A stretch of 64,000 nucleotides of DNA. Source: a virus. Lineage: Duplodnaviria; Heunggongvirae; Uroviricota; Caudoviricetes. Numbering within the stretch: the stretch's first letter is position 1; the number at the start of each line of letters is the position of its first letter. This document shows positions 9,615 through 60,123 of the stretch, piece after piece. Below the pieces are notes generated by a model. The model was not told the origin of the DNA. It saw only the letters and a program-made list of their open reading frames with translations, and searched no databases. The DNA is taken from positions 1 through 64,000 of IMG/VR virus record IMGVR_UViG_2908567220_000002. One strand, given 5' to 3'. Both the position numbers and the translations under genes were made by a program.

Positions 9615-10196
9615 TCACACCGTCCCCGTGGTTGCCTGACTTGTCACCGTGCTGCCGCCGCTCTCCACACCGCTGACCGGGTGGGTGTGGATGTTGTATG
9701 CCTCCCGCAGCGCCTTCAGCGTGGTGCTGTTGGTTTCACAGTTGTCCGTGATATCCCCCGTCACCTTCAGCGACGGCGTTTCAAGGGTGACCCCGTCCGT
9801 CGCCGTCACCTTCAGCGTGGTGGCACTGTTCACCGTCACCGGCTGCCCGGAGGCCTCCACCACAATCCCGTCCTCACCCAGACGGACGAACTGCCCCCAC
9901 TGGTTGTAGACCACCACCTCACCGCTGCTCAGACCGTTAATCCGGTATGACTGATGGCCGGACGCCACCACCACCGCGCTGCTGCGGTTACCGGCAAGAC
10001 TCATCACCACCACATCCGTTCCGTCGGGCAGCACCGAGGAAAAACCAAACTGCTGAAGAACCGGCGTGTCGCTGCGTACCTCTGACGGACTCTGCACCTG
10101 CACGGTCTGCACCACACCGCTGTCATCACCCGCCGTCACGCGCCCCACGCTCAGCAGTGACACCAGACGGCGAAAAAGCACCTGTACAGGATTCAT
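9615..10196 (-). CDS. Baseplate assembly/spike protein (Mu gp45-like, gpV-like)
   Basis: 193 aa; position within the Mu-like baseplate cluster. Confidence 0.6.
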   Translation of the reverse strand: MNPVQVLFRRLVSLLSVGRVTAGDDSGVVQTVQVQSPSEVRSDTPVLQQFGFSSVLPDGTDVVVMSLAGNRSSAVVVASGHQSYRINGLSSGEVVVYNQWGQFVRLGEDGIVVEASGQPVTVNSATTLKVTATDGVTLETPSLKVTGDITDNCETNSTTLKALREAYNIHTHPVSGVESGGSTVTSQATTGTV

Positions 10197-11281: not shown

Positions 11282-12702
11282 GTGTTTCTCGCTGTGAAGG
11301 AAAGCGGCATGAACGCCGGATGGACGGGAGAGACCGCCTGTACCAGTTCGTCCGCACGCGAGGCGTCCTGATACAGCCGGTTTGCCAGCGCCAGCGACGG
11401 CTGCGGTGAGCGGCTGGTCACCTTCATCACGTCCTGTTGTGACAGATAATTCGTCTGCCAGTGGGTGACAAACTGCGTGTACTGCGCATTCAGCGCGTCA
11501 TAACTGTCGTCATCCGTACGGTCAGCCAGTAACAGCAGGACGGTTTCCGTCACCGTGCGGGCCTTCCGCATCACCAACACCGCGTCGTCGTGACCACGGG
11601 GGGAATACTGCATCAGCCGCCACAGCATCGCTCCGGCCCCCAGTGTGCGGATAAGGGCCTGCACCGCCGCAGAGATGGCATTTGCCGCCTCCCCTTCGTA
11701 ATACGTCCCGTCTTCCGCCGACGCAATCTCAGCCATGACGCGGATTTTCTCCGTGTCGCTGCCCGTGGCCTCCGCCAGAGTGATAATGACCGCCTGTATC
11801 GCGGACACGGCACCGGACACGGATGTGATATCCTCCAGCACCGCTGTCGCCGACTCCGCCGCCGACCGGTCCTGCACGGAGCAGGCCTGAATGGTTTCCA
11901 GGATACTGTCATCATCCGCATCCGTGGTGGCAAGCCACGTTGCAAGCGACGAGGCCGTGCTGCCCGACGGCGTGTCACTGCCCCGACAGTAACGCCCGTA
12001 ACTGTCAGGCGAATACAGGGATGACACCGTGCTGGTCATGCTGGTCACCGACGTCACCGCCCGCGAAAATATCGTCTTCCACGCGCTCACCGTGCTCTTT
12101 ATCGTTTTTACCGCGCCGGTGACACTGTTCATCTCACCGGTAATCGCCGCCAGCGTCACGGTGGCCGTTGTGGTCAGCGTCTGATACCACGTCTCCGATG
12201 ACGTGGAGGTTGTCCCCGTCACCAGTGAAAACGCTTTTTCCCCTGACTCAATGACGGTCAGCGTGAACGAAAACACACGCCCGGACTCCACGCCCTCTTC
12301 AATACGCAGACCTCCGTCCGGGACATACACCGTCATCTCACCCAGCGTCGGATGGACCAGCAGACCTCCGCCGGATGTTTCACAGGCCGCCACCAGGGCA
12401 TCCCGCTGACTGAACACATCCCCCGCGCTGTACACCAGACTGTCCTGTATCAGGAACCCGCGCAGTGTGAACTTCCGGGCGCTGCGCCCCAGGTCTTCCA
12501 CCCAGACCGTATCGCGGTACGGGTATTCATGCACCGCCACCCGGCGACCATATACCCCCTCTCCGGCAATCACGCCAAACGGCACGCCACAAAATGACGC
12601 CTGGTGAATATGCGACTGCCACTCCCACCCGCCGGAGGAAGACAGCCCCAGGGCGGATGACACCGCGTCTGTGATAATGCCCATCTTCTGCTCCTCACAC
12701 AT
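11278..12702 (-). CDS. Mu gp43-like protein (DNA circulation protein N-terminal domain family)
   Basis: 474 aa; N-terminal pattern FCGVPFGVIAGEG...GRRVAVHEYPYRD...VEDLGR; downstream of tape measure. Confidence 0.6.
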   Translation of the reverse strand: MCEEQKMGIITDAVSSALGLSSSGGWEWQSHIHQASFCGVPFGVIAGEGVYGRRVAVHEYPYRDTVWVEDLGRSARKFTLRGFLIQDSLVYSAGDVFSQRDALVAACETSGGGLLVHPTLGEMTVYVPDGGLRIEEGVESGRVFSFTLTVIESGEKAFSLVTGTTSTSSETWYQTLTTTATVTLAAITGEMNSVTGAVKTIKSTVSAWKTIFSRAVTSVTSMTSTVSSLYSPDSYGRYCRGSDTPSGSTASSLATWLATTDADDDSILETIQACSVQDRSAAESATAVLEDITSVSGAVSAIQAVIITLAEATGSDTEKIRVMAEIASAEDGTYYEGEAANAISAAVQALIRTLGAGAMLWRLMQYSPRGHDDAVLVMRKARTVTETVLLLLADRTDDDSYDALNAQYTQFVTHWQTNYLSQQDVMKVTSRSPQPSLALANRLYQDASRADELVQAVSPVHPAFMPLSFTARNT

Positions 12703-14659
12703 CCATCGCCGTGACCACCGCGCCCCCCTTCACCGTCCGGCGGGTTGTCTGCCCCGTGGCGGTGTTGGTGACGTTAATGTCCAGCCGGATTTTGTTTTCG
12801 CTGAAACCGCGACTAATTTCATCCCGCACGTCAGTCCCTGAACTGCCGGACTGCAGCATGATGATGCTGCCGCCGGATACCTGCGACATGTGCCTGAACA
12901 CCTTCGGCGCGTAGGTCTGTGTCTCCTGTGGCATCCCCTTCTGTCCGCGAAGCCAGGCGCTTATATTGCCTTCGCCCCAGTTGTACGCCTGAAAGACGCG
13001 CTGCATGTCACCACCATACTGCGCCATCAGCCCCGCCAGTTTTCTGGCCGCTGCCTCCGAGGCCCGGTAAGGGTTGAATACATCCATACCGGAAAGGCCA
13101 TACTCCCGGGCCGTCGGGTCAATGAACTGAAACATCCCCTTTGCCGTGCCGTAACGGGTGAGCGGCCCGACAGCATCCGCCCGCCCGGACGACTCCGTCA
13201 TGGCCAGACCGTACAGCGTGTTTTCCGGCAGGTTGTACTGCTTCTCCAGTGCCGCAAAATGCGCCCGCAGTTCAGGGGTGATATCACGACCACCGGCACC
13301 GTTTTTTTGTGGTGACGTGATCTGTGACAGGGCCGGAGACACCATAACTTTCGACAGATCGTCATTCAGCATCGTGGTAAGCGCATTCAGTCTGTCGGAC
13401 CGCTGACCGGACAGACGCGTGTGCATCTCCAGGAGATCTGATGTCGCGATATTGTTATCGAGATTGTATCTTTGCCGGGACGTCAGTGATTTCAGTTGCT
13501 CCGGATGGGCATACAGATAACCGCGCAGCTCTGACAGACGGTCACCCGTTTTCTGCTGACTGCTGCGCTGACCGGTCAGGACATCGGTCGCCCAGTCTAC
13601 GGAGGCGGTGACAGCATCACTGCCCAGTACCTTCGCCTTAATCCTGCCGGTGAAACCATCCCACGCGGCTGACAGACGGTTCAGGTTGCTGTTGGCCTGA
13701 ACCAGCTTCGCATTCAGACTGTCCGGCATCGACAGCCCCAGACGATCGGACTCCGCCAGCGCCGCATTCAGGTTTTTCGTTCCCCGCAGCAGCGCCAGTT
13801 GTGCATCCGACAGCCCCAGCGCGTCCGCCACCACCTTCTGCGACGAACTGTTCAGTCTCCCGAAGGCATCAATCAGGTTCTGCGTGCTCTTTTCCAGGTT
13901 CACCGTGTGGTCGCTGTTCTCCGCCAGCTTCACACCAAACTGGTTAAGAATGCCCGTGACCTCCGGTGAACGGGTGTTCAGCGCATCGTTCAGTGTCGTG
14001 AACAGTGCACCGGTCTCCGCCTGTGCCTGATCTGCCGACAGGCCCATCAGACGGAACACCCCGGCAAAGCGGCTGAACGCACTCACGCGCATTCCGGCGT
14101 TCCTTGCGTTCACATCCAGGCTGTATGCCGCTTTCGAGGCATCATAAAGATTACTGACGACCGCCTTCACCGCCATGCCACCGCCAGCGACCACAAGCCC
14201 CGCAAGACCTCCGCGCCCCAGCGCACTGAACAACTCTGATGACAGTGCCCCGACATTGCGCAGCGGCGGCACAATATCCCCGAAATGCTGTGACGTGTCC
14301 TTCCCCAGCCGGGACAGCCGTTCAAAATATCCGGACATCCTGTCCGCATTCTCCTGACTCTCCCTTCCCAGCGCCCTGTTACCCGCCCTGTCTGTGGCCA
14401 GCAGCGCGTTCATCAGTAGCGTAACCGAATCGTGGATCTGCGTTATCTTCCCGCCCAGCGCATCCGCCGCACCGGATGCCCCGTTCAGGGACGTGTCATT
14501 TACTTCACCCAGCTCCTCAGACAGACCTGACACGCTGGCCGCCGCCTGCTCTGCGTTACCTGCCAGCAGTCCTGCAGCCTCTGAGGCTCTCAGTAAAAGC
14601 GCATCCGCGTTACCCTTTGCATTCAGCTCAAAAACAAAAGCATTACCCGCCATCGCCAC
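12695..14659 (-). CDS. Tail tape measure protein with C-terminal lytic transglycosylase (SLT) domain
   Basis: 654 aa, Ala/Leu-rich helical N-terminal part; C-terminal TESSGRAD...GMFQF...AYNWG motifs typical of SLT. Confidence 0.7.
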   Translation of the reverse strand: MAMAGNAFVFELNAKGNADALLLRASEAAGLLAGNAEQAAASVSGLSEELGEVNDTSLNGASGAADALGGKITQIHDSVTLLMNALLATDRAGNRALGRESQENADRMSGYFERLSRLGKDTSQHFGDIVPPLRNVGALSSELFSALGRGGLAGLVVAGGGMAVKAVVSNLYDASKAAYSLDVNARNAGMRVSAFSRFAGVFRLMGLSADQAQAETGALFTTLNDALNTRSPEVTGILNQFGVKLAENSDHTVNLEKSTQNLIDAFGRLNSSSQKVVADALGLSDAQLALLRGTKNLNAALAESDRLGLSMPDSLNAKLVQANSNLNRLSAAWDGFTGRIKAKVLGSDAVTASVDWATDVLTGQRSSQQKTGDRLSELRGYLYAHPEQLKSLTSRQRYNLDNNIATSDLLEMHTRLSGQRSDRLNALTTMLNDDLSKVMVSPALSQITSPQKNGAGGRDITPELRAHFAALEKQYNLPENTLYGLAMTESSGRADAVGPLTRYGTAKGMFQFIDPTAREYGLSGMDVFNPYRASEAAARKLAGLMAQYGGDMQRVFQAYNWGEGNISAWLRGQKGMPQETQTYAPKVFRHMSQVSGGSIIMLQSGSSGTDVRDEISRGFSENKIRLDINVTNTATGQTTRRTVKGGAVVTAMDV

Positions 14660-14788
14660 TCCTCAGCCTGTTGATCCGCTCTGCCTGTGACGACCACCAG
14701 AGAATTTCCCCTGACGTCAGCCCCCACGCCTCGCGCGGGGACCAGTGAAAGAACCACGTCAGTTCAGCCGCCCTCGCCTGCCACTGGC

Positions 14789-30041: not shown

Positions 30042-30116
<75 letters not shown>

Positions 30117-30119
30117 CAT

Positions 30120-30195
<76 letters not shown>

Positions 30196-30362
30196 CATTG
30201 GTTCCTCAGGTGTGGATGAGATGCCCGGATACATAAATTACCCTCCCTTGGAACCGACGAAGAATAATAATGAATTCCGCTCCTGTTTCAATACAAACAA
30301 TGTCAGGTATTTAAAACATAATTATACAATATTATAAAAATTAAAAAGTTCGCAAAAAAAAG

Positions 30363-44836: not shown

Positions 44837-45155
44837 TCCTTTTTACTGTGGAAAGCTAAATCATATCACGGTCTATGAAGTAAAAAGTGAATTTCGTGAT
44901 GCGGTGAATGCGGCTCAGCGCACGCAGAACAGTTAAAAACACAAGTGTTATGGGTGAATCATCCGGCGTTAATTGCTAACTGGTTAACGTCACCTGGAGG
45001 CACCAGGCACCGCATCACAAAGTTCACTTAGGTGATGAAAGGTAGAGAAAATGTTGAATGTAGCTATTGAAAACCAGAACGGGTGGAATTATAGTGCACC
45101 TGCACCTCATAAAACGGGTGCCGGGCGTGGAAACCCGATGTTCACTAACGCGCAT

Positions 45156-45178
45156 AACCGCGCTCAGGCGGTTTTTTT
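45156..45178 (+). terminator. Rho-independent terminator within the leader upstream of the rha-like gene
   Basis: Stem AACCGC/GCGGTT, loop GCTCAG, followed by T7. Confidence 0.55.
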
Positions 45179-45347
45179 ATGCGTAATGCACAGCCACATT
45201 CAGATTATGGTGGGACGTGCAGGGCAGCCGCAAGGCTGGCCGGGTTCGTTAGTGACCGGTATTTCCACCCCTGTACGTCTCACCACCCTTATGGTCGTGG
45301 AAAACCTTGGTGGTGAGTTAATCAAATTCACTAACGAGGCTGCTATC

Positions 45348-45902
45348 ATGGCTACTATCCCTACCCTTTCTCAACCTGACGTAACCATCGAAAATGGTCG
45401 CGCTGTCACTACGTCTGTTGCGATCGCCGAGTTCTTTGGCAAACGCCACGACAATGTTATTCAAAAAATAAAATTACTGGATTGCTCCCCTGAATTCACT
45501 GCCCTTAATTTTAAGGTGAGCGAATACACCGACTCAACCGGGCGCAAACTCCCTATGTACCAAATCACCAAAAACGGCTTCGTTTTCCTGGTGATGGGCT
45601 TCACGGGCAAAAAAGCCGCAGCTTTCAAGGAAGCCTACATCGCTGAATTCGATCGCATGGAGGCAGAGTTGTACCAGCTTAATACCACTACCACAGACAA
45701 AATAATTCCTGGTGATGGTCGCACTCTCGTTGTTCACTTCGACGAACGCGGCAATATCAAATTCACCGAAACCGTTCCTGACGGCGCTCTCGTCTGTACT
45801 CTGGATACTTTCCGCTTTTATCTGGAGAAGCAGGGGTGGACTCTTGTAAACAGGAGCGCAATTAAAAATATGACCGTCGAGCAGTTGCTGAGTATTAAAT
45901 AG
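45348..45902 (+). CDS. Rha-family phage regulatory protein / antirepressor
   Basis: ORF 45051-45902; probable start MATIPTLSQ at 45348 with GAGG RBS; upstream in-frame region contains a terminator so is probably non-coding. Confidence 0.65.
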   Translation: MATIPTLSQPDVTIENGRAVTTSVAIAEFFGKRHDNVIQKIKLLDCSPEFTALNFKVSEYTDSTGRKLPMYQITKNGFVFLVMGFTGKKAAAFKEAYIAEFDRMEAELYQLNTTTTDKIIPGDGRTLVVHFDERGNIKFTETVPDGALVCTLDTFRFYLEKQGWTLVNRSAIKNMTVEQLLSIK

Positions 45903-46287: not shown

Positions 46288-48726
46288 TTGATGAGCACGA
46301 ATAAAGAAGTGTTTGCGCTATATTGCGAAGCTAAAAATGACAAGGTCAGAAAGCGTCTCGGTATTAAAGGTGGCTTTTTCTGGATCGAAGCCAAAAAACT
46401 TTCCGTTGCAGTTTCCCGCTGTATTGCCGCTATGGACGATGCTGGCTACGACGAAGATGATTTCAAAAAAACAGTTCGCGTCCATTTGCCTGTTCTAAAT
46501 GACCTGCCACCTGAAGGCGTATTTGATACTGATTTCTGTAACCGTTACGAAAAAGGTGGAGAAGATGGCATCACAATGATGCCGGTACCGTCCAGCAACA
46601 GCGATGAAAACAGTAACGCCGCTAATACTAACGTCAACGGCGAAGACATGATTGAGATTGAGGAGAATATTCTTCTGCCGGTTTCAGGTCAGCTTCTGCC
46701 TGTTAGATGGCTGGCACAGCACGGCAGCGAAAAACCTGTCACGCATGTTTCACGGGATGAACTGCGGGCATTACATAACGCACAGGAAGAAAAACTTCCC
46801 GCCGTTACCGCTCTGGCCATCTCAAATAAAGCAGTGCAACTCGAACCGCTGGAGATTCGGGATTTGTACAAACTGGTGCGGGACACTGACAAAGTTTTTC
46901 CCGCCCCCGTAAATTCAGACCTGGGACTGATGACTTCCTTCATCGAAGCATACCTGGACGCTGACTACACCAATCGCGATCTGCTTACAAAAGAGTGGAT
47001 GAAAGGAAATCATGTTTCGCGAATCAGCCGCACACCATCCGGCGCTAACGCTGGCGGCGGTATTCTTACCGATCGCGGCGAAGGTTTTGTACACGATGAT
47101 GCATCACTGGCGCGCGACGTAGCCACTGGCGTGCTGGCCCGTTCAATGGACGTGGACATTTATAACCTTCATCCGGCACACGCTAAACGCGTCGAGGAAA
47201 TTATCGCTGAAAATAAACCGCCCTTTTCTGTTTTCTTCAGCAAATTCATCACCATGCCGGGCCACAAGGATTTCTCCCGTGCCATCGTGGTTGCCTCCGT
47301 GAAAGAATCACCAGTTGGTATAGAGGCTATGCCCCACCGTGTCACCGAATACCTGAATAAAGTGCTGACTGAAACCGATCATGCCAACCCTGATCCGGAA
47401 ATCGTGGATATTGCCTGCGGTCGCTCCTCTGCCCCGATGCCGCAGCGTGTAACTGAAAAAGAAAAACATGATGAAGAAAAACCGCAACCATCTGGCGCAA
47501 TGGCAGATGAACAGGCAACGGCTGAAACAGTGGAACCGGATGCAACTGAACATCATCCGGACACGCAGCCGGTGGATGCTCAGCCACAGGTGAATTCTGT
47601 TGATGCGAAATATCAGAAACTGCGGGCAGAACTCCATGAAGCTAGGAAAAACATTTCGCCTAAAAATCCTGTCGACGCAAACAAATTACTGGCAGCCTCT
47701 CGCGGAGAATTTGTTGAAGGGATTAGTGACCCGAATGATCCGAAATGGGTTAAGGGGCTCCAGACTCGCGAGTCTTCGAACCAGAATCAACCAGAAGTGG
47801 AACAAACCAAGCCAGAATCGGGACAAAATAGCCAGGATGCACACCAAAATGAACCAAAAACGATACATCCGGAGCCAGCAGCGCAACATGCACAGAAAAA
47901 TCCCTGTAATGTTTGTGGGGAAACTGGCGGGGGCACATGCCCTGACTGTGCCTCAGTAATGGGTGACGCAACTTACCATGAGACATTCTGCGAGGAAGAT
48001 TCAGATGAATCTCAGGAAAAAGCTCCGGAGGAGATGGAAAACCCTGAACATCCGCATCCGGAAAATACTGACAGCAATCAGCATAACAATAGCGGTGATA
48101 AAACTGACAGGACGACAAATTCCTTAATTAATATGCACGGTCATCAGAAAAGAACATCCACCAGCAGAATGTGTCACCATCTGATGATCGACCTTGAAAC
48201 AATGGGAAAAAATCCTGATTCCCCGATTATCTCAATAGGTGCAATATTTTTCGATCCGCAAACCGGAGAGATGGGACCAGAATTTAATAAAACCATCGAT
48301 CTGGAAACTGCTGGCGGAGTCATTGATCGGGACGCGATCAAGTGGTGGCTGAAGCAATCACGCGAAGCGCAATCTGCCATTCTGACCGATGAAATCCCGT
48401 TAGATGATGCACTGCTGCAATTGCGGGAATTTATCGCCGAAAACTCCGGTGAATTGTTTGTTCAGGTCTGGGGAAATGGAGCCAACTTCGACAACGTGAT
48501 TTTGCGCCGTTCATATGAACGGCAGGGTATCCCCTGCCCGTGGCGCTACTACAACGATCGCGATGTACGCACAATCATTGAACTGGGAAAATCCATAGAC
48601 TTCGATGCCAGGACGCCTATTCAATTCGAAGGCATACGCCACAATGCGCTGGATGATGCCCGTCACCAGGCGAAATACGTTTCAGCAATCTGGCAAAAAC
48701 TGATCCCGAATCAGTCTGATTTTTAA
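46288..48726 (+). CDS. Exonuclease annotated in lambdoid prophages as exodeoxyribonuclease VIII-like; C-terminal DEDD-type 3'-5' exonuclease domain
   Basis: 812 aa; C-terminal [23 protein letters not shown]...[10 protein letters not shown]; upstream of xis-int as exo is in lambda. Confidence 0.65.
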
Positions 48727-48789: not shown

Positions 48790-49038
48790 ATGGCAAGACT
48801 TATTCTGCTCACTGAGTGGGCAAAAGAGGAATTCAGCGATCCGGTCCCTACTCCGGGCACGTTAAGTAAATACGCTAAAGCCGGAATGATATTTCCTCTC
48901 CCCAAAAAAGTTGGAAGACACTGGCGAGTGGATCCGCGAGCTCGCTTTGTCGGAATGGTAAACAAGCCGGAGGTGATCGCCACAGATCACCCTGCTTTAA
49001 AGAGGATACTGGAAGATGGCACGCCCGCGAAAATATAA
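48790..49038 (+). CDS. xis: Excisionase
   Basis: 82 aa immediately upstream of and overlapping the integrase gene. Confidence 0.65.
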   Translation: MARLILLTEWAKEEFSDPVPTPGTLSKYAKAGMIFPLPKKVGRHWRVDPRARFVGMVNKPEVIATDHPALKRILEDGTPAKI

Positions 49039-50146
49039 AACCGCTGTTCCGGGATTATCTCCGTATTTTGACAAAAGAAATAACAAAGTTTACTGGCGTT
49101 ACAGGCATCCCATCACAGGTAAAAATCATGGACTCGGCAGTATTGACCAGAAACTGGCGGAAACCATTGCAGCAGAAGCGAACAGCCGTCTTGCCAGACA
49201 ACAAATGGAGCAAATGCTCAGTCTGCAGGAGAAAATTATTAGTGATACCGGCGGCGCATCAACCGTTTCCATTTTTCTGAATAATTACAGAAAAATTCAA
49301 CAGGAAAGATATGAGAACGGAGAGATCAAACTCAGCACGCTGAAGCAAAAAGCGGCTCCTCTCAGGGTGTTTGATGAACGTTTTGGAGCCAGGCCGCTAG
49401 ATGCCATAACAGTAAAAGATGTGGTATCGGTGCTGGAAGAATACAAGGCAAAGGGACATAACAGAATGGGACAAATTTTCAGGAAGGTATTGATCGATGT
49501 TTTCCGGGAGGCTCAACAAACGGGTGATGTCCCGCCAGGCTTTAACCCGGCTGAATCGGCAAAAAAACCGCAAGTGCGGATATCAAGACAGCGACTGACT
49601 TTTGATGAGTGGATGATGATTTATAACGCAGCGGAAAAGGATGGTTACTTTTTACAGCGCGGCATGCTGCTGGCACTGATGACGGGCCAGCGTCTTTCGG
49701 ATATTTGCAAAATGCAGTTTTCGGATATCCGGGATGGTTACCTTCATGTCGAACAGCAAAAAACAGGAGCCCGGATAGCCATTCCTCTGGCTCTGCGTTG
49801 CGACAAATTAAATCTTACCCTGGGTGACGTGGTGTCATCCTGTCGTGATTACATCCTTAGTCCGTGGTTATTGCACCATCATCACGCTAAGGGGATGGGT
49901 AAGCGCGGCGGGATGGTTAAACCAGCAACGTTAACAGTCGCATTTAAAAAAGCCCGGGATTCTGTGGATTACAACTGGCGTGCTAATGGCACGCCACCCT
50001 CTTTCCATGAGCAAAGATCTTTATCAGAACGATTGTTCAGAGAACAGGGAATTGATACCAAAATTTTGCTGGGCCATTCGAATCAAAAAATGACCGATGT
50101 TTACAACGATGCACGCGGTAAGGAGTGGAAAAAACTGGTCATTTGA
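49016..50146 (+). CDS. int: Tyrosine integrase (lambda Int family)
   Basis: 376 aa; N-terminal arm-binding-like region; C-terminal catalytic region LLGHSNQKMTDVY. Confidence 0.85.
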   Translation: MARPRKYKTAVPGLSPYFDKRNNKVYWRYRHPITGKNHGLGSIDQKLAETIAAEANSRLARQQMEQMLSLQEKIISDTGGASTVSIFLNNYRKIQQERYENGEIKLSTLKQKAAPLRVFDERFGARPLDAITVKDVVSVLEEYKAKGHNRMGQIFRKVLIDVFREAQQTGDVPPGFNPAESAKKPQVRISRQRLTFDEWMMIYNAAEKDGYFLQRGMLLALMTGQRLSDICKMQFSDIRDGYLHVEQQKTGARIAIPLALRCDKLNLTLGDVVSSCRDYILSPWLLHHHHAKGMGKRGGMVKPATLTVAFKKARDSVDYNWRANGTPPSFHEQRSLSERLFREQGIDTKILLGHSNQKMTDVYNDARGKEWKKLVI

Positions 50147-50187: not shown

Positions 50188-50430
50188 AAAATTAGAAGCG
50201 GTATCCGGCAGAGAACATAAACACCCACGGATCCAGTCGTACCGCGTCTTTCACGGGGGTTCCATTAAATTTATAGCTGGCGGTTGTGTCGATATCCATG
50301 TACCACACTGGTAGGTTTCAAAAAACACAATAACCAATTGTATTTGAAGCAAAAAAACAAGACTTTGAGATGTTTTTTTGTACCTTTTTTTATGCTTTTA
50401 ACTGTCTGATTTTATTGAAATCTTTTTTAG

Positions 50431-50440
50431 TTTTGCAGAA
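50431..50440. promoter_or_regulatory. Fourth arm-type repeat (P-arm-like) on the other side of the presumed core
   Basis: TTTTGCAGAA in an AT-rich stretch about 270 bp from the first cluster. Confidence 0.4.
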
Positions 50441-50620
50441 GGAATTTTTTACTTGATTGTAACTTTTTCGTTTTTTTGGGGCTAATTGACGCGCAATGCT
50501 GGGCGGGGAGCGCACAGCCAAAAAAACCGAAATTGACCGCTAATTACTGCCAATCATCATCGCTCTGATTGAGCGTAAATCATTCAGGTTATTCAGTTCT
50601 TCCTTCTGCTCTCGCTGACG

Positions 50621-50902
50621 TCAATAAATCCCATCATTGCGATCAACCTCATCCTTAACCATTGATGCGAGCAGTTCTTCCAGTTTCTGCGCTGACAGCT
50701 TTACCTGGTGATCTTCAGCATCTTCCCGGGCTATTGTGGTTCGCGCAGTGGCTGATTTTGCTGACATCACCACAGGGGGCAGACGGACCATTGAACCATG
50801 GCCTCCGGAACAAATAAGGGCAAAAATAACAACCACTATCGAAAGCTCACAAACTAACCGCAGCACGTTCCTGCATACGACGTGTCTGCGGCATAATCCC
50901 AA
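50621..50902 (-). CDS. Hypothetical protein in the b-region of prophage B
   Basis: 93-aa ORF; its 5' end lies inside the tfa-derived repeat, so it may be non-functional. Confidence 0.3.
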   Translation of the reverse strand: MGLCRRHVVCRNVLRLVCELSIVVVIFALICSGGHGSMVRLPPVVMSAKSATARTTIAREDAEDHQVKLSAQKLEELLASMVKDEVDRNDGIY

Positions 50903-50905
50903 TGA

Positions 50906-51175
50906 TTACTCCCTGACAGGATTTGCAGGCCACTCAATATCAGGTACAGTTGATGTATCAACACGATTCAACAATACCCGATATTTATTCCATGCCTCCA
51001 GCAACGATCTTTCTTCCTCCGTTGCGATTTCCAGATCTACAGCATCCTGCAGTGGCGCAATATACTCACTGAATTCCTGGATGTAGAACTGTGTGGTGAC
51101 GGTCTTCCAGCCATTCGGCTCCTGCTGTATCGAAGCATACCAGGCTATTTCAATATCGCTATGCTGCGGCAGCAT
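50906..51175 (-). pseudogene. Tail fibre assembly protein (tfa) C-terminal fragment
   Basis: 89-aa ORF ending [22 protein letters not shown]; far shorter than an intact Tfa. Confidence 0.55.
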
Positions 51176-51231
51176 TTAACCCCTTGTAATTCATCGCCAT
51201 AATTGATTTAATTCACAAATAAAACTATAAC

Positions 51232-51900
51232 ATGGTGAAATCAATGAAAAAAAACACAGATGATGGGGCTAAAATTTACACACCACTTACCCTAAAGCTT
51301 TATGACTGGTGGGTTTTGGGAGTATCAAATCGGCTTGCATGGGGATGTCCTACAAAGGAACACCTTCTTCCACACTTTCTGGAACATGTAGGTAACAACC
51401 ATCTGGATATTGGTGTTGGAACTGGGTTTTACCTTACTCACGTACCTGAGAGTAGTCTGATATCTTTAATGGATTTGAACGAAGCTAGCCTGAACGCGGC
51501 ATCTACAAGGGCTGGGGAATCAAAAATTAAACATAAAATTAGCCATGATGTTTTTGAACCTTATCCCGCGGCGTTACATGGTCAATTTGATTCCATTTCC
51601 ATGTTTTACCTTCTTCACTGCCTGCCTGGAAATATATCTACAAAAAGCTGTGTAATACGCAATGCGGCGCAGGCCTTAACTGACGATGGAACTCTATACG
51701 GAGCCACAATTCTTGGCGATGGAGTTGTGCACAATAGCTTCGGTCAAAAACTGATGCGCATTTACAATCAGAAAGGCATCTTTTCAAACACAAAAGATTC
51801 CGAAGAAGGCTTAACACATATACTCTCAGAGCATTTCGAGAATGTTAAAACCAAGGTTCAAGGTACTGTAGTAATGTTTTCCGCTTCAGGGAAAAAATAG
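51232..51900 (+). CDS. Class I SAM-dependent methyltransferase (no DNA-MTase motif IV; substrate unknown); AT-rich cargo gene
   Basis: 222 aa; Rossmann motif I-like LDIGVGTGFY; flanked by the two tfa-derived repeats. Confidence 0.65.
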   Translation: MVKSMKKNTDDGAKIYTPLTLKLYDWWVLGVSNRLAWGCPTKEHLLPHFLEHVGNNHLDIGVGTGFYLTHVPESSLISLMDLNEASLNAASTRAGESKIKHKISHDVFEPYPAALHGQFDSISMFYLLHCLPGNISTKSCVIRNAAQALTDDGTLYGATILGDGVVHNSFGQKLMRIYNQKGIFSNTKDSEEGLTHILSEHFENVKTKVQGTVVMFSASGKK

Positions 51901-51949
51901 CATCCAACCGCAGCACGTTCTTGCTTAAGACGTGCTGCGGCATAATCCC

Positions 51950-52137
51950 AATGATTACTCCCTGACAGGATTTGCAGGCCACTCAATATCAGGTGCAGTT
52001 GATGTATCAACACGGTTCAGCAACACCCGATACTTTTTCCAGGCTTCCAGCAATGAGGTTTCTTCCTCCGTTGCGATTTCCAGCTCAACAACAGTCTGAA
52101 CGTACCGGGAACAGCCTCCTTCAGAGCTTGAAGGATA
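51950..52137 (-). pseudogene. Second tfa C-terminal remnant, in frame directly after the stf stop codon, no start codon
   Basis: Reverse-strand translation after the stf stop reads [26 protein letters not shown]..., continuing into the Tfa-like C-terminus; about 85 percent identical by eye to 50858-51060. Confidence 0.45.
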
Positions 52138-55100
52138 TCAATGTTCGCTTCCTGTTAACTGCCGGACAAGTGCAACCAGTTCGCTTACCTGATTTTCCAG
52201 AGTGCTGATCCGGGTGTCTGCTGTTGCCAGATTTTCACGTAGCGTTGTGTTTTCCTCTTCCAGCGCGGTAACGCGATCATCTGTTTCACGGGCGACCTGA
52301 ACAAGTAAACCCGTCACGGCGGCGTAGTCAACATTAAGATAGCGCGTTTCTTCGCGTAGCTCGTTGCCGTCAACGGTCGGGCCTTGCAACTCTTCACCAT
52401 AATGAGTAAACGATCCCACAGCTTCTGGTATCGCCTCCATTACTTCCTGTGCAATAACGCCAGCATAAGGCATCCCGTTTTCCCTGAGCGTGTAGGTGTA
52501 TCCGTTCATTTTACGGATTGCTTTCGTCGCGTCGCTGATAACGAGAATATCGTCTTTAAGGTCGCGGTCTGATGACTGATTCAGCGTTGTGCAATTAATA
52601 GCGCCATTTACATCAAACAACTGGCCTGCTGACGTTTTTTGCGCATAAAACAGATACGCAGCAGACGTTCCAACCTCAAAAACGTTTTGTCGAGTACTGG
52701 AACCCCACACCCTGACAGAAAACGGCAGTTCTGCATTGCCTGAGTTCTGTAAAACAAAACGATTACCAGTCCCTGATTGCTTTGTAAGGGTTAAATCAAC
52801 GGTTGAGTTAACCTCATTCTTGTTGATAGTGAGCGCCTGCGCTGTAGCCCCGTTAACAGCACCTGTTTTGAGTTGAACCGCGCCGTCATTACCATTTAAC
52901 AGTATCTCAGCTCCGCTAAAGAAATTTTTTAGCGACAGCATCTTACTTACGCCGACTGATGAACCCAACGCCCACGCGAGAGAATTACCGGTGCTATCAA
53001 ACCCACGTACAAAGCAATCCATTTTGCTATAGTCTGACGTGCTTCCAAGGACATCAATTCGCCCTCCGCCAGATTTTACCGGACTAGATGTGGTTAACGA
53101 CCTGACAGTTATATCCTGATTCCATCCGGAAACAACAACCTGACTCCACGCTGTCCAGTTTCCATTAACAACAAAGCGAACGTATATACGTTTTGTGTCG
53201 CTGTTAATCAGCGTTTGCATGTTCGCATAATCTGAATCCCTAACCTTACGAGTCGACTCTACACGGAGCAAAAAGTTACCGGTTACACCGTCAGGCTTGT
53301 TGGTGATATTTGCACCACCTCCAGAGGATGGACAACTATAGTATTTAACCGCCCCGGCATCTGACCTGATGGTCAGGTTGTTAAGATCAACCTTCTGGCC
53401 GCCAATGTTTTCAGGCTCGATGGCTCCTGCTATCCCGGCACTGAACGTAGCAGCGGCTGAAAACGCTGTCGTACCTTTGAAAGCCAGTTGACCACCAATC
53501 GTTAATCCCTTGTCGAGTTTCGCTTGCGTGATCAATTTGCTGTTTTGTTTCTGATCAGGACTCTCGCCAAAAGCCAGATCCCCATTAGTATCAATTCCAA
53601 GATACTTTTGGTTCACGTTGTCTAACTTAAACCCAATGGACACATTTTCAGAAGAACCGGAACGCGTTAAAACCAACGGCGTGTGCTGTACTCCATAGAT
53701 GCTGAGCGTAGTTGCCGATGAGTCAGTGTCGGTATTTGCAATCTCAATCGTTCTGCTTTTAATTTTATACGCTACTGTGAGATCACGGACTTCAACCCTC
53801 CCGTCGTGACGAACAACAAGATCCCCTCCTGATGTCCCCCCTGCTGTCTTTGCCCTGATGCGAACTTCGCCAAGCGAATCAGTGTTAGGACCAGCATAGA
53901 TTATGCCGCGCTCTGTGTTATCGCCAGTATAAAACCGCAAAGCGGTGACTCCACTGTCTGCCCGCAGGAAGACTGACGGTGTACCTTTTTTGATTGTCAA
54001 GTCACCGGTCATTGTATCGCCGGTTTTTTTTACCTGCGCATCGTTCGTTACGTTGCCAAGTCCAACATCCGATTTCGACGGCTTGTTTGCCGAGCCGTAT
54101 AGCTCATTGACGCTAAAAGTCCCGTTGTTAAGCCGGGCATCGGTGCCGGCATAGATCTTAATCTTCGCGGTTGAGTAGTCGATATTGATCGCTGACCACG
54201 TATCGCCGCACCGCGAGAATATACCAGAACCGTGGCTATAAATGGTCGCCGTGCTTCCGGTCGGCTTATCACCGCGCCAGAAATGACCACCTTTGTCACG
54301 CAGAGCTTTTAAGATCTCTACATCGCTCATCTTGCCGTTTGTTGATATCCCGCTACCGCCAAGACCGAAAGCGCCTGTAAGCATAGCATTAGAAAGACCC
54401 AAATCTGCTTTAGTCGGCTTGTTTAACTGGTCGTAAATCCTTACAACGGGGCTTTCAACATATCCAGAAGGCGCGGCGGTTTGCTTAACAAATCCGTCTG
54501 GAATGTATAATTCCGTGCGTGCCGTCTGCGCCAGTACCGCAACCTTTGCGCCGTTGATAAATGCGCGCTGGAAGGCCCAAACCTCAATAAAGCCATCACC
54601 TTTAACCAGGCCGTAACGCATCTGGTTGTTATCGGTCAGCCCGGTTGACCCTAAGCGGCGTATACTCAGATGACGAGAAACATTATCCGCACTAAGCAAA
54701 GAAGGCATACCGCGCGCCGAGATCTCGATAAAGTCAATGTTTCCGTAAGGGGAGCCGTAGTTACCAGCGTTAGTAACCATTAGCGTTACATGGCAATTGC
54801 CGCTTCCGGGATCGGAAAGTTTCGCGATCTTTATGTAAAAAGACTCATTACCAGTAACAACGGGCCAATCGTATTGCGTCATCGGGCTGACGAGTCCCCC
54901 GACCTTGTCGAGATATTCTTTCGCCTTGTTCTCTGACGCTTTAGCGTTGGTTTCGCTGACCTTTGCTGCTGCCTCACTATTTTTCGCGTTGGTTTCTGAT
55001 TTTTTGGCTGCTGTCGCGGAGTTTGCCGATGCAGTTTGTGAGTCTGCTGCCGCCTGTGCGCTGTTATCCGCATTCGTCTCAGACGTTTTTGCGGCCTTCG

Positions 55101-55917
55101 CGGAATTTCCTGCCGCCGTTGCCGAGGAAGCTGCACTACTGGCACTTGATGATGCGTTCGTTTCTGATGATTTCGCTGCCTCTTTTGAGGCCGCCGCATC
55201 CCGGGATGAGGTGGCAGCTTCTGACGCTTTCGTGGTCGCGGTGGATGCAGAAGTGGCTGCAGATTTTTGTGACGCTGCAGCATTCGTTTCTGACGTTTTC
55301 GCCGCACCGGCACTGGTGGCTGCCGCGCTTTTTGAAGACTCTGCGGCGGCAGCACTTTTTAATGCTTCAGTGGCCTTTGTTGATGCCGTTCCTGCGCTGG
55401 AAAAAGCCTCCTGAGCCGACGTCGCGGCCTGTCCGGCTGACGTTCTGGCTGCGCGTGCTGAGTCTGCAGCATCAGTCGCATGGGTTGCCGCCTCACGGGC
55501 TGATGTGCCGGCATCGCTGGCTGACTTCTTCGCGGCTGCCGTGTTCTGTGCCACTGCGGACGCGTTACGCGCCACCTCTGCCACCATCAGTTCAAAGCGG
55601 CGCAGTGCCTCCGGACGGGCATCATCCTCCGTCATGGCACCGAGAAAATCATTCAGCGTACCCGGTTGTGAGTCTTCATACACGGTGATGGTCCCGGCAT
55701 GCGATGGCGGGAAGCCTTCCACCAACAGAATAACGCTGTACTGACCGTACTCAACGTCCATGCTGTAACGCCCTGCTTCATCCGGATTTTCAGATGCCAC
55801 CGTGTTCACCACCACCGTGGTGCTGTTACGTTTTGCTTTCAGCTGGATTGTGCAGTTCTGTACCGGTTTACCTGCACCGTCTTTCAGTACACCTGAAATC
55901 TTTACTGCCATATTCAC
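52138..55917 (-). CDS. stf: Side tail fibre protein (lambda Stf-like) with C-terminal intramolecular chaperone (peptidase S74-like) domain
   Basis: 1259 aa; N-terminus matches lambda Stf as recalled; Ala-rich repeat region; C-terminal DRDLKDDI...YLNVDYAAVTGLL plus coiled-coil tail. Confidence 0.75.
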   Translation of the reverse strand: MNMAVKISGVLKDGAGKPVQNCTIQLKAKRNSTTVVVNTVASENPDEAGRYSMDVEYGQYSVILLVEGFPPSHAGTITVYEDSQPGTLNDFLGAMTEDDARPEALRRFELMVAEVARNASAVAQNTAAAKKSASDAGTSAREAATHATDAADSARAARTSAGQAATSAQEAFSSAGTASTKATEALKSAAAAESSKSAAATSAGAAKTSETNAAASQKSAATSASTATTKASEAATSSRDAAASKEAAKSSETNASSSASSAASSATAAGNSAKAAKTSETNADNSAQAAADSQTASANSATAAKKSETNAKNSEAAAKVSETNAKASENKAKEYLDKVGGLVSPMTQYDWPVVTGNESFYIKIAKLSDPGSGNCHVTLMVTNAGNYGSPYGNIDFIEISARGMPSLLSADNVSRHLSIRRLGSTGLTDNNQMRYGLVKGDGFIEVWAFQRAFINGAKVAVLAQTARTELYIPDGFVKQTAAPSGYVESPVVRIYDQLNKPTKADLGLSNAMLTGAFGLGGSGISTNGKMSDVEILKALRDKGGHFWRGDKPTGSTATIYSHGSGIFSRCGDTWSAINIDYSTAKIKIYAGTDARLNNGTFSVNELYGSANKPSKSDVGLGNVTNDAQVKKTGDTMTGDLTIKKGTPSVFLRADSGVTALRFYTGDNTERGIIYAGPNTDSLGEVRIRAKTAGGTSGGDLVVRHDGRVEVRDLTVAYKIKSRTIEIANTDTDSSATTLSIYGVQHTPLVLTRSGSSENVSIGFKLDNVNQKYLGIDTNGDLAFGESPDQKQNSKLITQAKLDKGLTIGGQLAFKGTTAFSAAATFSAGIAGAIEPENIGGQKVDLNNLTIRSDAGAVKYYSCPSSGGGANITNKPDGVTGNFLLRVESTRKVRDSDYANMQTLINSDTKRIYVRFVVNGNWTAWSQVVVSGWNQDITVRSLTTSSPVKSGGGRIDVLGSTSDYSKMDCFVRGFDSTGNSLAWALGSSVGVSKMLSLKNFFSGAEILLNGNDGAVQLKTGAVNGATAQALTINKNEVNSTVDLTLTKQSGTGNRFVLQNSGNAELPFSVRVWGSSTRQNVFEVGTSAAYLFYAQKTSAGQLFDVNGAINCTTLNQSSDRDLKDDILVISDATKAIRKMNGYTYTLRENGMPYAGVIAQEVMEAIPEAVGSFTHYGEELQGPTVDGNELREETRYLNVDYAAVTGLLVQVARETDDRVTALEEENTTLRENLATADTRISTLENQVSELVALVRQLTGSEH

Positions 55918-55975: not shown

Positions 55976-56575
55976 TCAGAACTTATAACCAACACCCACG
56001 ATGAACCCGTCAGTGCGCCAGTCGCCACTGCCGGAGCCTTCATAAGCGACATCAACGGCCACGGATTCGGTCGGGTTAAACTGCACGCCAGCCCCCCACG
56101 CCAGAGACATGTTGCTGTGGCGACCGTCATCACTTCCGGTCAGCACATCGTGCGTTTTCCCCTTGTTGTCAGTTACGCGGAGATAATCCCCGGAGAAAGT
56201 CGACACACGGCTGTAAGCCATACCCGCCATCGCATACGCGCTGAACCATTCATTCACGCGCACAGACGGCCCCGCCATCACGCTGAACCAGCGGTTACGC
56301 ACGGAATCTTCATGCCAGCGGGTATCGCTGTAACGGGTCAGCTGGCGATTCTTGTCTCCTGCATAGCTGAATGACGTCACCAGCCCCAGCGTATCCGTAA
56401 ACTCATAACGGTATTTCACGTTAATCCCGTTCAGATTATCGCTGCCGGGAGCGTTCGTACGGGCATGAAGATACCCTGCGCTCAGTGTGGCCTGCTGCTC
56501 AGACGCCCATGCAGGCGCACCGGATACGGCCAGACAGATGGCTGCGGACAAAATGGCTGCACAAACTTTACGCAT
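55976..56575 (-). CDS. lom: Lom-like outer membrane protein (Ail/Lom/PagC family)
   Basis: 199 aa with signal peptide and beta-barrel-like alternating pattern ending GYKF; between J and stf as in lambda. Confidence 0.8.
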   Translation of the reverse strand: MRKVCAAILSAAICLAVSGAPAWASEQQATLSAGYLHARTNAPGSDNLNGINVKYRYEFTDTLGLVTSFSYAGDKNRQLTRYSDTRWHEDSVRNRWFSVMAGPSVRVNEWFSAYAMAGMAYSRVSTFSGDYLRVTDNKGKTHDVLTGSDDGRHSNMSLAWGAGVQFNPTESVAVDVAYEGSGSGDWRTDGFIVGVGYKF

Positions 56576-56643: not shown

Positions 56644-59600
56644 TCAGCTAATCGTGATACCTGCTGTGGATTTCTTCATCACCACAACCAGCAAATCACT
56701 GATACTGGCTGTGGGATACCAGTCATTTACCAGCCACGCTGATACCGAAAACTCCAGCGTCATGTGACCGCGACCAGCAGGCATATCAATAACACCTGTA
56801 TAAACCAGCGTATTATCCAGCGCGGTACGGTTATAAATTTCAGCACCGTTTTTCTTCACTATCAGGCGGCATGACGAATAAATATCGTTATTCTCCCGCT
56901 CATGTTTAGCGCCACGAAACGCCACCGCGGGAATAACAATCTGCCGGTCAAACGGCTGATCGTCATAAACCCTGACGGTAATGGTCCCTGATGGCCACCG
57001 CTCCGGTGCACGGGAGTCCCGGGGGAAAGCTTTGCCCACTGTTTTAACGAGATCGCCTTCAATCTGGTTCGCAGACAGTTTTCCCAGAACCCGACAGTTT
57101 TCATTTATCGTGACATTGTTGAGCGTCCCGGCGTTCGCATTCACACTGCCACTGATATCCGCATTTTTCGCCGTCAGTCGCCCGTCCGGTGTCAGGGAAA
57201 ATGCCGGTGGATTTCCACCGCTGGTAATGGTGGGGGCCGTCAGGCGTTTCAGGAACACGTCGTTCATGAATATCTGATCGCCCTGACCAACAAACATCGG
57301 TTTTGTGTTGCCATTCGCAGGATTAACCATCGCAATCCTGTCCGCCGCCAGCAGCACCTGACTCTGCATGCCGTCAGGGGTGTTCTCAATACCGGCACCA
57401 ATACCCGCGATATAAAGGCGTCCGTCCTGCATCTGCTGCAGCTTCACAGCCCACATGCTGTTCAGGTTATTATTTGTATCAACCTGAACCTTCTGTATCT
57501 GCTGAATTGCCGCACTCTGGTCTTCCAGTTTCTTATTGACGGTCTGCGTGATTTCATTGCTGACATCCGTAATGGACGTCCTGATTTCAGCCAGGTCAGG
57601 CGCAAGCTGACCGTTATCAATCTGCGTCCACAGCTCCTGAGCCAGATGGGTTTTCCCTATCTCGCCTTTGAAAAAATCCAGATAGCCGGATGCGTCATCA
57701 CTCGGCTGACCAACAGCCTCCACGAATGCCGATTTGCCAACGGTGTTCACACTGCGAACGTAAAAATAATAATTATGGCCCGGTTTGATATTGATACTGG
57801 CGGCTATCCAGTACAACGCCGTACCAAGATAGCGTGCTGTGGTTTCAACCTGCCTGATATCCGCAATCCGCTTTTCCGAGAACCAGAACTCAAACTGTAC
57901 CGTCGGATCATAAACCGCAAGATGCGGCGTGGCGGTTATCTGAAAATAGCCCGGCGTCAGCTCAATCCGCGACGGCGCTGCCGGTGCGGCAATCCGGAAC
58001 GATACCGACGCCGGATCGCCCTGCTGCCCCCACGCATTTACTGCCCGGACTGTCAGCCTGTAGTTCCCCAGAGCCAGTTGTGTGAAGCGGTAAGTGGTTT
58101 CCGTCGTCCGGGCCGTGCTGACCAGCCGCTCACTGCCGTCATCCGCTGCCACGGTCAGGCGAAGCAGGAAGCTCACGCCCTTCACCACCTTCGGCGTGTC
58201 CCAGCGGGCCAGCACCTGGTATTCCCCGCTGTCTGCGGTGACTTCTGCGGTCAGATGCTGCACTGCTGGCGGCGTGACACCATTCACCGTGCCGCTCTGG
58301 TCGCCGTCAAAGTGCGCCCCGTTATCCACGATGGCCTCTTTTTCCGGTACATGCTGCACGGCGGTGATGGCATACGTGCCGTCATCGTTCTCACGGATAC
58401 TCACGCAGCGGAACAGGCGCTGGCGCAGCGTCGGCAGCTTCAGCCCCCATACGCTGTATCCGGCAACGCCGTCAGGAACACGGCTCACTTTTACCTTCAC
58501 GCCGTCGGTGACGGACTGGACCTCCACGCCGACCGGATTGCCACTTCCGTCAACCAGGCTTATCAGCGTGGTACCGGAGGATGGCAGCGTGATTTCACGG
58601 TCGAGCGTCAGCGTCCGGGTCTGGCTGTTCACCGCCAGCACGCGCCCGCCGGTGCTGATACCGGCATAGTCATCATCGCAGATTTCAATGACATCGCCCG
58701 GTACATGGCGAAGCCCTTCAGCACCCACGCTGAAGTCCACGGTCTGCGTTTCCAGCAGCTCCGTTTTAATCAGCCACAGCCCGGCGCGGTGTGCCTGCCC
58801 CCGGCTGGTACAGCCAAAGGCATCCATCTTCGTGACGTTACGACCGTAACGGGCAATGGCCTGCGAGTCCTCCACAAGCTCTGTTGCCGTCTCCCAGCCG
58901 TTATCCGGGTCAATCCAGTTCACTTCAACGGCATTATGGCGGTCTTTCAGGGCGCTGAAGCTGTAGCGGAATGGTGCGCCATCATCCGGCATCACCACAT
59001 TACTGCGGTTATAGGTCCACACCTTATCCGATGGTCGGTCCTGCACGAACGTCAGCGTCTGCCCGTTCCATACCGGCATACAGCGCATCGCCGAGCAGAA
59101 ATCACTGAGCACATCCCACGCCTTACGTTGTGTGGTCAGGTACGCATTACAGGTGATGCGCGGCTCCGTACCGCCAAAGCCGTCCGGCACCGACTGGTCA
59201 CAATGCTGGCCGATGACATACAGCGCCCATTTGTCCACATCCGCCGCACCAAGACGTTTCCCCATGCCGTAGCGCGGATGGGTCAGCATATCCCACAGAC
59301 ACCAGGCCATGTTGTTGCTGTATGCTGGCTTAAACGTTCCGTCCCAGATACCGCTGTATTGCCGCGTCTGCGGGTTATAGTTCGACGGCACCTGCAGAAT
59401 GCGCCCGTGCAGATGATAATTACGGCTCACCTGCTGGCTGCCGAACTGCTCCGAATCCACCTGCACGCCGACCAGTGCCGTGTTCGGGTAGCACTGTTTC
59501 ACATCGATGATTTCGGTGTATGACGACCAGAGCGTTTTGTTCTGCAGCTGGTCTGTGGTGCTGTCCGGCGTCATCCTGCGCATCCGGATATTAAACGGGC

Positions 59601-60123
59601 GCGGCGGCAGGTTACCCACCACCACCGAGGCCAGATACTGCGAGGTGGTTTTGCCCTTAATGGTGATGTCTTTTTCCGTCACCCAGCCACCATTACGCTG
59701 GATCTGAACCAGCAGGCGGACTTCCGACGGATTCCTGTCCCCCTTTGAGGTGGTTTCCACCAGTGCCTGCACGCCGAAGGTAAAACGCAGTCGGTCAATG
59801 TTTGCCGACGTGATGGTCCGGGTGATCGGCGTGTCGTATTTCACTTCCGTACCCAGCACCGTCTCGGAGCCGGAGGATTCAAATCCCTCCGGCGGTGTCT
59901 GCTCCTGCTCACCGGCCCGGAACACCACCGTGACGCCGGAGATGTTGGTATTCCCCTCACTGTCCAGCACCGGCGTACTGTTCAGCAGCACGCTTTTTAA
60001 TCCATCCACCGGACCTTCAATCGGCCCTTCGCTGATGGCATCGATCACACTCAGCAACTGCGTGGACTTCAGGTTGTCCTTCGCTTCGCGCGGAGTATGC
60101 CCCTTACTGCTGCCTTTACCCAT
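56644..60123 (-). CDS. J: Host specificity protein J (central tail fibre/tip)
   Basis: 1159 aa; position after I; recalled similarity to lambda J. Confidence 0.85.

Follow-up and report, generated by a model that had tools for sequence, protein, structure and literature searches.

The 64,000-nt stretch of DNA analyzed here (the window, positions 1 to 64,000 of the Caudoviricetes record IMGVR_UViG_2908567220_000002 in IMG/VR) holds two prophages, A and B, that sit in tandem in ompW, and the present analysis concerns the tail-fiber end of prophage B (50190-55917), in which the side tail fiber gene stf is followed by remnants of the tail fiber assembly gene tfa. Taken together, our observations make it quite probable that this region is a recombination mosaic of common E. 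coli phage parts, in which the fiber tip was exchanged via a conserved block at the 3′ end of tfa and a methyltransferase gene is independent cargo. Starting from the ompW 3′ fragment, the order in prophage B is a DUF4376 relic, a TfaX-like open reading frame (ORF), the methyltransferase gene on the + strand, a truncated tfa relic (tfa′), stf, lom and J (Table 1).

A preliminary description of this DNA had recognized by eye two tfa-derived segments that share a direct repeat of about 200 bp and about 85% identity, and alignment bears this out. Specifically, a global alignment of 50856-51049 (copy A, 194 nt) with 51906-52098 (copy B, 193 nt) gives 174 identical columns out of 194 (89.7%) and a single 1-nt indel, such that the repeat falls into two blocks with a one-base offset, 50886-51049/51935-52098 (164 nt, 90%) and 50856-50884/51906-51934 (29 nt, 90%). 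The two copies match one another in blastn with E = 5e-71, which rules out a repeat that arose by chance, and no third copy was found in the 64-kb window. Each copy comprises the final 48 tfa codons with their stop, followed by about 50 nt of 3′ sequence that includes a hairpin. The hairpin of copy B has a perfect stem of 11 bp and a minimum free energy z-score of about -6 on either strand, whereas that of copy A is weaker (z -2.85) and has been degraded by a 1-nt insertion and by substitutions.

Neither copy belongs to a full-length, two-domain Tfa, that is, a protein of ~180-195 residues with an N-terminal fiber-binding domain and a start codon, and the ORF list shows no intact tfa between the stf stop and the end of the prophage. 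The segment adjoining stf lies in frame directly behind the stf stop, as had been described. It has no start codon, and only the conserved Tfa C-terminal domain is left in it (Caudo_TAP, 1.5e-20, profile 86-130). Its translation ends in PANPVRE before the stop codon, and in related genomes the annotation pipeline PGAP labels it ‘tail fiber assembly protein, missing N-terminus’. A strong Shine-Dalgarno-like GGAGG is present at 52115-52119 (- strand), within the 12 codons that separate the stf stop from the Tfa-like part of the relic, and is followed by no start codon.

With respect to the left segment, the preliminary description of a tfa C-terminal fragment holds for part of the ORF. Caudo_TAP (PF02413) is matched at 1.7e-24 by residues 31-86 only, corresponding to profile positions 75-130 of 131, and residues 1-30 are not derived from tfa, so that the ORF is a chimera of foreign codons and a Tfa C-terminal domain. 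It is homologous to tfaX of K-12 and matches a recurrent 88-residue phage family, phrog_2341, over its full length (6e-61). This full-length match, together with the intact reading frame and its ATG, would be expected if the ORF encoded a functional small protein, for example a trimerization helper, with the repeat being kept by selection on two genes. The ORF is also identical or near-identical in the window, in O104:H4 and in several phages, and it retains the conserved Tfa C-terminal domain, for which a role in trimerization has been proposed (PMC9608196). Nonetheless, it is broken by a premature stop in K-12 tfaX and in PhiR68_2 and by a frameshift in 2G7b, where 7 bp are deleted; it ends in an early stop in Ayreon, which keeps another continuation of the small ORF; and its 3′ ends diverge in Turner and PhiR26_1. 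The protein would lack the fiber-binding N-domain, PGAP calls it a pseudogene, and the codons that differ between copies A and B do so synonymously in 8 cases and non-synonymously in 6, which does not indicate strong constraint. Moreover, its 5′ end may be conserved because it overlaps the candidate promoter region of the methyltransferase gene. We therefore consider a functional protein unlikely, and the ORF is most likely a relic.

Both tfa relics are also matched by the Rfam family IS009 (RF02111) over the whole of its 199-nt model, at 50949-51152 and 51998-52198 (- strand). This family was predicted as a candidate small RNA in E. coli, and its model coincides with the conserved 3′ coding block of tfa. 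The two scores (112.5 and 95.1 bits) fall under the gathering score of 117, and a functional small RNA was accordingly rejected as the more likely identity of these segments. IS009 is probably not an RNA gene, given that it overlies coding sequence of tfa and that its matches in EDL933 also fall within genes (PMC5331693).

In terms of the fiber itself, Stf carries a phage_tail_N domain (6.6e-72) and shares 82% identity, from end to end, with its counterpart in the isolated phage Ayreon. The Ayreon protein begins with MAVKISG, and by comparison of the sequences the true start of stf in the window is likely the ATG at 55911, which encodes the same residues. The C-terminus is of the S74 type, as had been proposed: Peptidase_S74 is matched by residues 1116-1167 of 1259 (8.1e-12; 45.7 bits against a cutoff of 22), with position 1 of the profile falling on residue 1116. 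The Ser-x4-Lys motif is present at the start of this domain (S1116-D-R-D-L-K1121), where it aligns with SSDRRIKKDI of the S16 fiber structure (PDB 6F45), and it has the same spacing as the S911/K916 dyad of endoNF, the S74 mechanism having been described previously (PMC8326128). In NZ_AP021914, at locus positions 10949-14728, and in the isolate AF44, at 6530-10306, stf is annotated in two pieces, an S74 peptidase coding sequence and an N-terminal pseudogene, and in several related genomes the gene is broken within its Ala-rich repeat region; stf in the window is one intact ORF of 1259 residues.

The location of tfa′ in frame with stf, along with conservation of this junction in the window, Ayreon and mEp460, raises the idea that the relic is produced by read-through of the stf TGA, which would add a Tfa C-domain to the S74 chaperone. 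An in-frame position is expected by chance in one case out of three, however, and all of the junctions stem from one event and thus provide no independent support. No recoding signal turned up, though none was searched for, and the S74 domain is released upon cleavage, which leaves the extension without an evident role. We regard read-through as extremely improbable.

Evidence for the exchange of the tip comes from sister prophages at the same integration site. In the ompW-site prophages of E. coli O104:H4 C227-11 and of NCCP15648, the order is ompW′, DUF4376′, tfa′, methyltransferase, an intact tfa of 194 codons, stf, lom and J, and the tandem in NCCP15648 likewise sits behind a RecE/xis/int prophage. 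These loci differ from the window in having another fiber tip and the intact 194-residue Tfa. Up to ~52083, copy B and the spacer that separates it from the methyltransferase gene are the same as the 3′ end of the intact O104:H4 tfa except at 1 nt, and beyond that point similarity decays. At the other end, Stf is 89% identical to the O104:H4 prophage protein over residues 3-258 (the first 256) and shows no clear similarity thereafter, such that the distal ~1000 residues, including the S74 domain, are different from the sister-prophage tip at ompW. Because copy B is near-identical and the Stf proteins are alike only over the first 256 residues, the difference between the window and its sisters is that of a cassette. 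From these boundaries, the exchanged segment would extend from about codon 258 of stf to about codon 146 of tfa, with the S74 tip taking the place of the resident tip and of the N-terminal two thirds of tfa. Replacement of the tip by recombination, as suggested in the preliminary description, is thus supported by relatives that share the Stf N-terminus and the tfa 3′ end and that carry a different tip with an intact tfa.

This arrangement is consistent with what is known of Tfa proteins and of recombination among lambdoid phages. The variable N-terminal domain of TFA binds the fiber, and the conserved C-terminal helical domain mediates trimerization (PMC9608196, citing work on Mu TFA). De Paepe et al. 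showed by experiment that recombination of lambda with Rac and Qin takes place within stf-tfa homology of 88-96% identity (PMC3945230), and in the window the neighboring prophage A encodes a RecE-like exonuclease. In the mechanism that we propose, co-resident or infecting lambdoid phages would recombine by means of two homology arms, an upstream arm formed by the conserved 5′ part of stf and a downstream arm formed by the DNA of the conserved Tfa C-domain and the hairpin, which is ~190 bp in length and 90-100% identical between phages. The fiber tip and the matching tfa N-domain would in this way be swapped as one unit: since the conserved DNA block is the Tfa C-domain, crossovers would fall there, and the tip and the N-domain of its chaperone would travel together. 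The tip that arrived here would bring its own intramolecular chaperone, predicted to fold and trimerize the fiber and then to cut itself off at Ser1116. Such a tip would have come without a tfa N-domain, and the homology arm alone would have been left behind as the tfa′ relic.

The junction is not particular to this prophage. In Ayreon and mEp460, both isolated lambdoid phages, an S74-type Stf is followed by a tfa′ junction that is base for base the one in the window, and in 437 complete E. coli genomes the methyltransferase gene is found next to an S74 stf::tfa′ junction. That the same junction recurs in Ayreon, mEp460 and 437 genomes implies that it was formed once and then spread, rather than being made in this prophage. 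Ayreon and mEp460 differ in what follows: in Ayreon, an internal deletion in which the repeats played no part has removed most of the methyltransferase gene, and mEp460 contains a single tfa′ copy and lacks the gene. In E. coli AR437 (locus positions 3061-4865), the S74 stf::tfa′ relic is followed by an AAA-family ATPase gene and a hypothetical gene, with no methyltransferase; these two genes could be a defense pair.

The methyltransferase gene and its flanks have a still wider distribution. At a threshold of at least 95% nucleotide identity, ~70% of complete E. coli genomes (3799 of 5426) carry the gene, and in 2356 genomes it adjoins an intact tfa. The module also occurs in isolated lambdoid phages with other fiber types or with a Pin invertase, namely 2G7b, PhiR26_1, Turner and PhiR68_2. 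In Turner and PhiR68_2, a Pin-type invertase is encoded between tfa and the methyltransferase gene, which would fit the view that the repeat is the remnant of an invertible tail-fiber segment of the Gin/Cin/Pin type. This view has next to no probability: the repeat copies are direct, which is the ground on which we reject such an origin, the only inverted repeat found measures 16 nt at 81% identity, and no invertase ORF exists between int and stf in the window.

The preliminary description had further proposed that the methyltransferase was inserted as cargo between duplicated tfa ends. The gene does indeed lie on the + strand between two tfa 3′ ends, and its base composition (41.1% G+C, against 52.3% for the window) together with the bracketing repeat could be taken to mean that it entered this very prophage after or along with the replacement of the tip, the tfa end being duplicated locally at that time. 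The distribution just described largely refutes such a local insertion, which we hold to be very improbable. The same gene with the same flanks stands beside intact tfa in the 2356 genomes, in the K-12 prophage DLP12 and in phages of other fiber types, and the junction of copy B with the methyltransferase segment matches that of O104:H4, implying that the duplication predates the S74 tip and does not depend on it. Since the module elsewhere stands beside intact tfa and other fiber types, the tfa end was duplicated long ago and independently of the S74 tip. What stands from the earlier proposal is the placement of the gene; the module itself is the old and widespread tfaD-ybcY-tfaX arrangement, made neither here nor with the tip swap. 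We suggest that the methyltransferase gene came to lie on the 3′ side of tfa at an earlier stage, when it and the 5′ end of a neighboring small ORF were joined illegitimately to a second tfa copy, an event that would have given rise to the direct repeat. A single junction, at which codon ~30 of the small ORF (divergent from the methyltransferase gene) became fused to codon ~135 of the tfa of another genome, would suffice, and one illegitimate junction is the simplest origin of the duplicated tfa end.

A direct repeat would also render the methyltransferase gene prone to loss by homologous recombination, as the preliminary description had noted. To look for such an outcome, a recombinant sequence was assembled as predicted, with the repeat set between the flank of copy A and that of copy B, and was then searched for. 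Isolate AF44 matches this predicted sequence in one piece with 98.1% identity at the same ompW locus, and it lacks the methyltransferase gene. Its hairpin and left flank are of the copy-A type, and its variants are of the copy-B type from ~50946 rightward; a mosaic of this kind is expected from crossing over inside the repeat. The predicted hybrid is thus found in a natural isolate, where it may record either a deletion or an ancestral state. The methyltransferase gene is dispensable for a viable phage, whichever way AF44 arose. Related phages and prophages include those that carry the gene beside an intact tfa (C227-11 and NCCP15648) and those that lack it (AF44 and mEp460).

With respect to the product of this gene, assignment as an S-adenosylmethionine (SAM)-dependent methyltransferase, also part of the preliminary description, is well supported. 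Four Pfam models score above their gathering thresholds (Methyltransf_12, 37.5 vs 30; Methyltransf_23, 29 vs 27; Methyltransf_25, 27.7 vs 27; Methyltransf_11, 24.6 vs 21.2), phrog_2132 is matched over its full length (4e-157), and the positions of the SAM motif D59-x-G61-x-G63-T-G65 are invariant in 24 homologues. An AlphaFold2 model (mean predicted local distance difference test score, pLDDT, of 88; predicted template modeling score, pTM, of 0.85) has a Rossmann-type class I fold and yields 1223 methyltransferase-type matches at E<=0.001 when compared with the PDB in Foldseek. The best of these is 8YS9, a bacterial phosphatidylethanolamine N-methyltransferase (E 5e-11; template modeling score, TM, 0.61-0.66), and JHAMT, Coq5, phosphoethanolamine methyltransferases and natural-product methyltransferases score almost as well. 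More specific NCBIfam models of the PmtA and UbiE-Coq5 types all remained below cutoff (PmtA, 15.7 vs 390; RquA, 16.9 vs 175; CpaM, 18 vs 180 bits), and a sequence search of the PDB gave weak matches to JHAMT and UbiG. No DNA methylase family is among the Pfam matches, and a search for defense systems with PADLOC returned one 12.9-bit match only (E 0.009). A full-text literature search found no functional study of ybcY. The protein is 100% identical to a database cluster of 6589 member sequences, and homologues with 55-70% identity occur in Enterobacter, Citrobacter, Salmonella, Klebsiella, Yersinia, Erwinia and Aeromonas. Judging from the predicted fold, it is best described as a methyltransferase of the small-molecule or lipid type (UbiE/Coq5/PmtA-like) rather than a DNA methylase, and as the product of a cargo gene to which we assign no substrate.

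As for expression, the 56-bp intergenic stretch upstream of the methyltransferase gene contains the only promoter-like site there and is near-invariant, together with the 5′ end of the copy-A ORF, across eight loci. The strong hairpin of copy B starts 8 nt past the methyltransferase stop codon and has no T-run on the + strand. The gene is probably expressed from its own candidate promoter in the lysogen. It is present or absent among otherwise collinear phages and deviates in base composition, which are among the features by which a moron is recognized. A more far-reaching interpretation, in which the ybcY-family protein is an active lysogenic-conversion enzyme acting on a membrane lipid or quinone and the tfa 3′ block with its hairpin has been selected as a cassette-exchange linker for tips and cargo, appears decidedly unlikely.

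Several observations weigh against parts of the interpretation set out above. AF44 could equally be the state before acquisition of the module instead of a deletion product, since a lone S74::tfa′ copy, with a short flank and a hairpin of the copy-A type, is frequent among other prophages and also occurs in mEp460. More generally, the layout in the window could have come from an S74 phage that gained the methyltransferase module or from the reverse, with the order of events being possible either way. At the stf junction, homology to Tfa at the protein level extends ~7 codons beyond the DNA breakpoint, and for this reason the tfa′ relic is itself a mosaic whose boundary with stf is placed only approximately. 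In the case of the methyltransferase, the fold matches fail to separate substrates, as TM values of 0.5-0.66 are obtained for many enzymes; among the chromosomal homologues, those in Salmonella and Enterobacter stand alone, and their neighbors give no functional clue; and promoter-like sites in the region are not more numerous than expected from shuffled sequence, the scan for promoters and terminators together staying at chance level.

The remaining features of the two tandem prophages are listed in Table 1. The ompW 3′ fragment is the attachment-site end of prophage B and its junction with prophage A, and it is likewise annotated in NZ_AP021914, C227-11 and NCCP15648. The tandem arrangement of A and B is also annotated in E. 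coli NCCP15648, and a single prophage of the B type is found in several other genomes. The DUF4376 relic is a third 3′-end relic in the same orientation as the two derived from tfa. A Pfam search with it gave no match, and its identity comes from PHROG matches and RefSeq annotation: an overlapping ORF at 50621-50902 matches phrog_1141 ‘tail fiber protein’ (6.9e-10) and phrog_7703, and in related genomes PGAP calls the relic a DUF4376 pseudogene. The tail genes of prophage A are of the myovirus type, and its early region is Rac-like. Prophage A encodes an unusual tail-fiber-like protein of 1474 residues (3599-8023, - strand), whose N-terminus is Mu Gp48-like and which has a Big_2 domain and leucine-rich repeats of the BspA type (Pfam LRR_5, 4e-37), and the prophage contains genes for tRNA-Gly(TCC) and tRNA-Thr(TGT) within 30043-30196 (- strand).

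Table 1. Positions of the features discussed, numbered from the first letter of the window
Feature	Position	Strand	Remarks
Prophage A intact Tfa, 179 residues	2209-2748		only intact Tfa in the window
Prophage A Baseplate_J	8020-9243		
Prophage A Rha/Ash	45051-45902		
Prophage A RecE-like exonuclease	46288-48726		
Prophage A xis	48790-49038		
Prophage A lambda-type integrase (int)	49016-50146		
ompW 3′ fragment, last 41 codons	50192-50317 (126 bp)	-	Pfam OmpW 4.6e-12, profile 155-195/195
DUF4376/tail-fiber-related relic	50540-50809	-	internal stop in translation
Repeat copy A	50856-51049		degenerate hairpin (50858-50891), tfa stop, last 48 tfa codons
TfaX-like ORF, 89 residues, ATG start	50906-51175	-	overlaps copy A
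Candidate promoter, sigma-70-like TTAACC-16-CATAAT	51176-51203	+	29 nt upstream of methyltransferase ATG
Class I SAM-dependent methyltransferase, ybcY family, 222 residues	51232-51900	+	convergent with stf/tfa′
Repeat copy B	51906-52098		strong hairpin (51908-51940), tfa stop, last 48 tfa codons
tfa′ relic, 60 codons, no start codon	51955-52137	-	in frame directly after stf TGA (52138-52140)
S74 intramolecular chaperone/autocleavage domain (predicted)	52138-52572	-	Ser1116 (codon 52570-52572) to stop, then coiled-coil tail
Side tail fiber gene stf	52138-55917	-	listed ORF of 1259 residues from GTG
Conserved stf 5′ part	55144-55911	-	phage_tail_N and start of Ala-rich repeats
Prophage B lom	55976-56575	-	
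Prophage B J	56644-60123	-	

Overall, the preliminary description was correct in what it observed and essentially right in how it was interpreted, and the layout it singled out is an ordinary one. Hundreds of RefSeq genomes already carry annotation of the same arrangement, which is common rather than special to this prophage, and it is established in general that tips are exchanged as modules at conserved blocks and that S74 domains take the place of separate chaperones. The locus does not represent a new kind of system. It does provide a worked example of host-range change in lambdoid phages, in which a variable tip and the N-domain of its chaperone move between conserved stf 5′ and tfa 3′ arms, and it is useful for the engineering of Stf chimeras. 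For the annotation of prophages, it suggests that matches to Rfam IS009 and the short pieces labeled ‘tail fiber assembly protein’ are relics and not genes. Of wider interest is the role of this methyltransferase, which the majority of E. coli genomes carry.

Among known systems, the closest counterpart of the methyltransferase module is the tfaD-ybcY-tfaX segment of the cryptic K-12 prophage DLP12, which has the same gene order and orientations and in which the tfa 3′ end, the hairpin, the methyltransferase and the TfaX-like ORF are all homologous to those in the window. The two differ in their state of preservation. In DLP12, ybcY is a pseudogene, tfaX has a premature stop (61 residues) and tfaD is nearly full length, whereas in the window the methyltransferase is intact, the TfaX-like ORF has 89 residues, and the upstream tfa has been cut to 60 codons behind an S74-type stf. 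With respect to its tip, Stf resembles the endosialidase endoNF, the L-shaped fiber of T5 and gp37 of S16 in its S74 domain with Ser-x4-Lys at the start; it is unlike them in that the domain is joined to a lambda-type Stf N-terminus, and cleavage is in this case predicted. Morons and other lysogenic-conversion cargo are known from the 3′ side of lambdoid tail fiber genes, examples being lom, bor and the effector loci of O157 prophages. The methyltransferase gene resembles phage morons in being a single low-GC gene in the opposite orientation that is present or absent among similar phages; it differs in that its promoter and terminator are candidates only.

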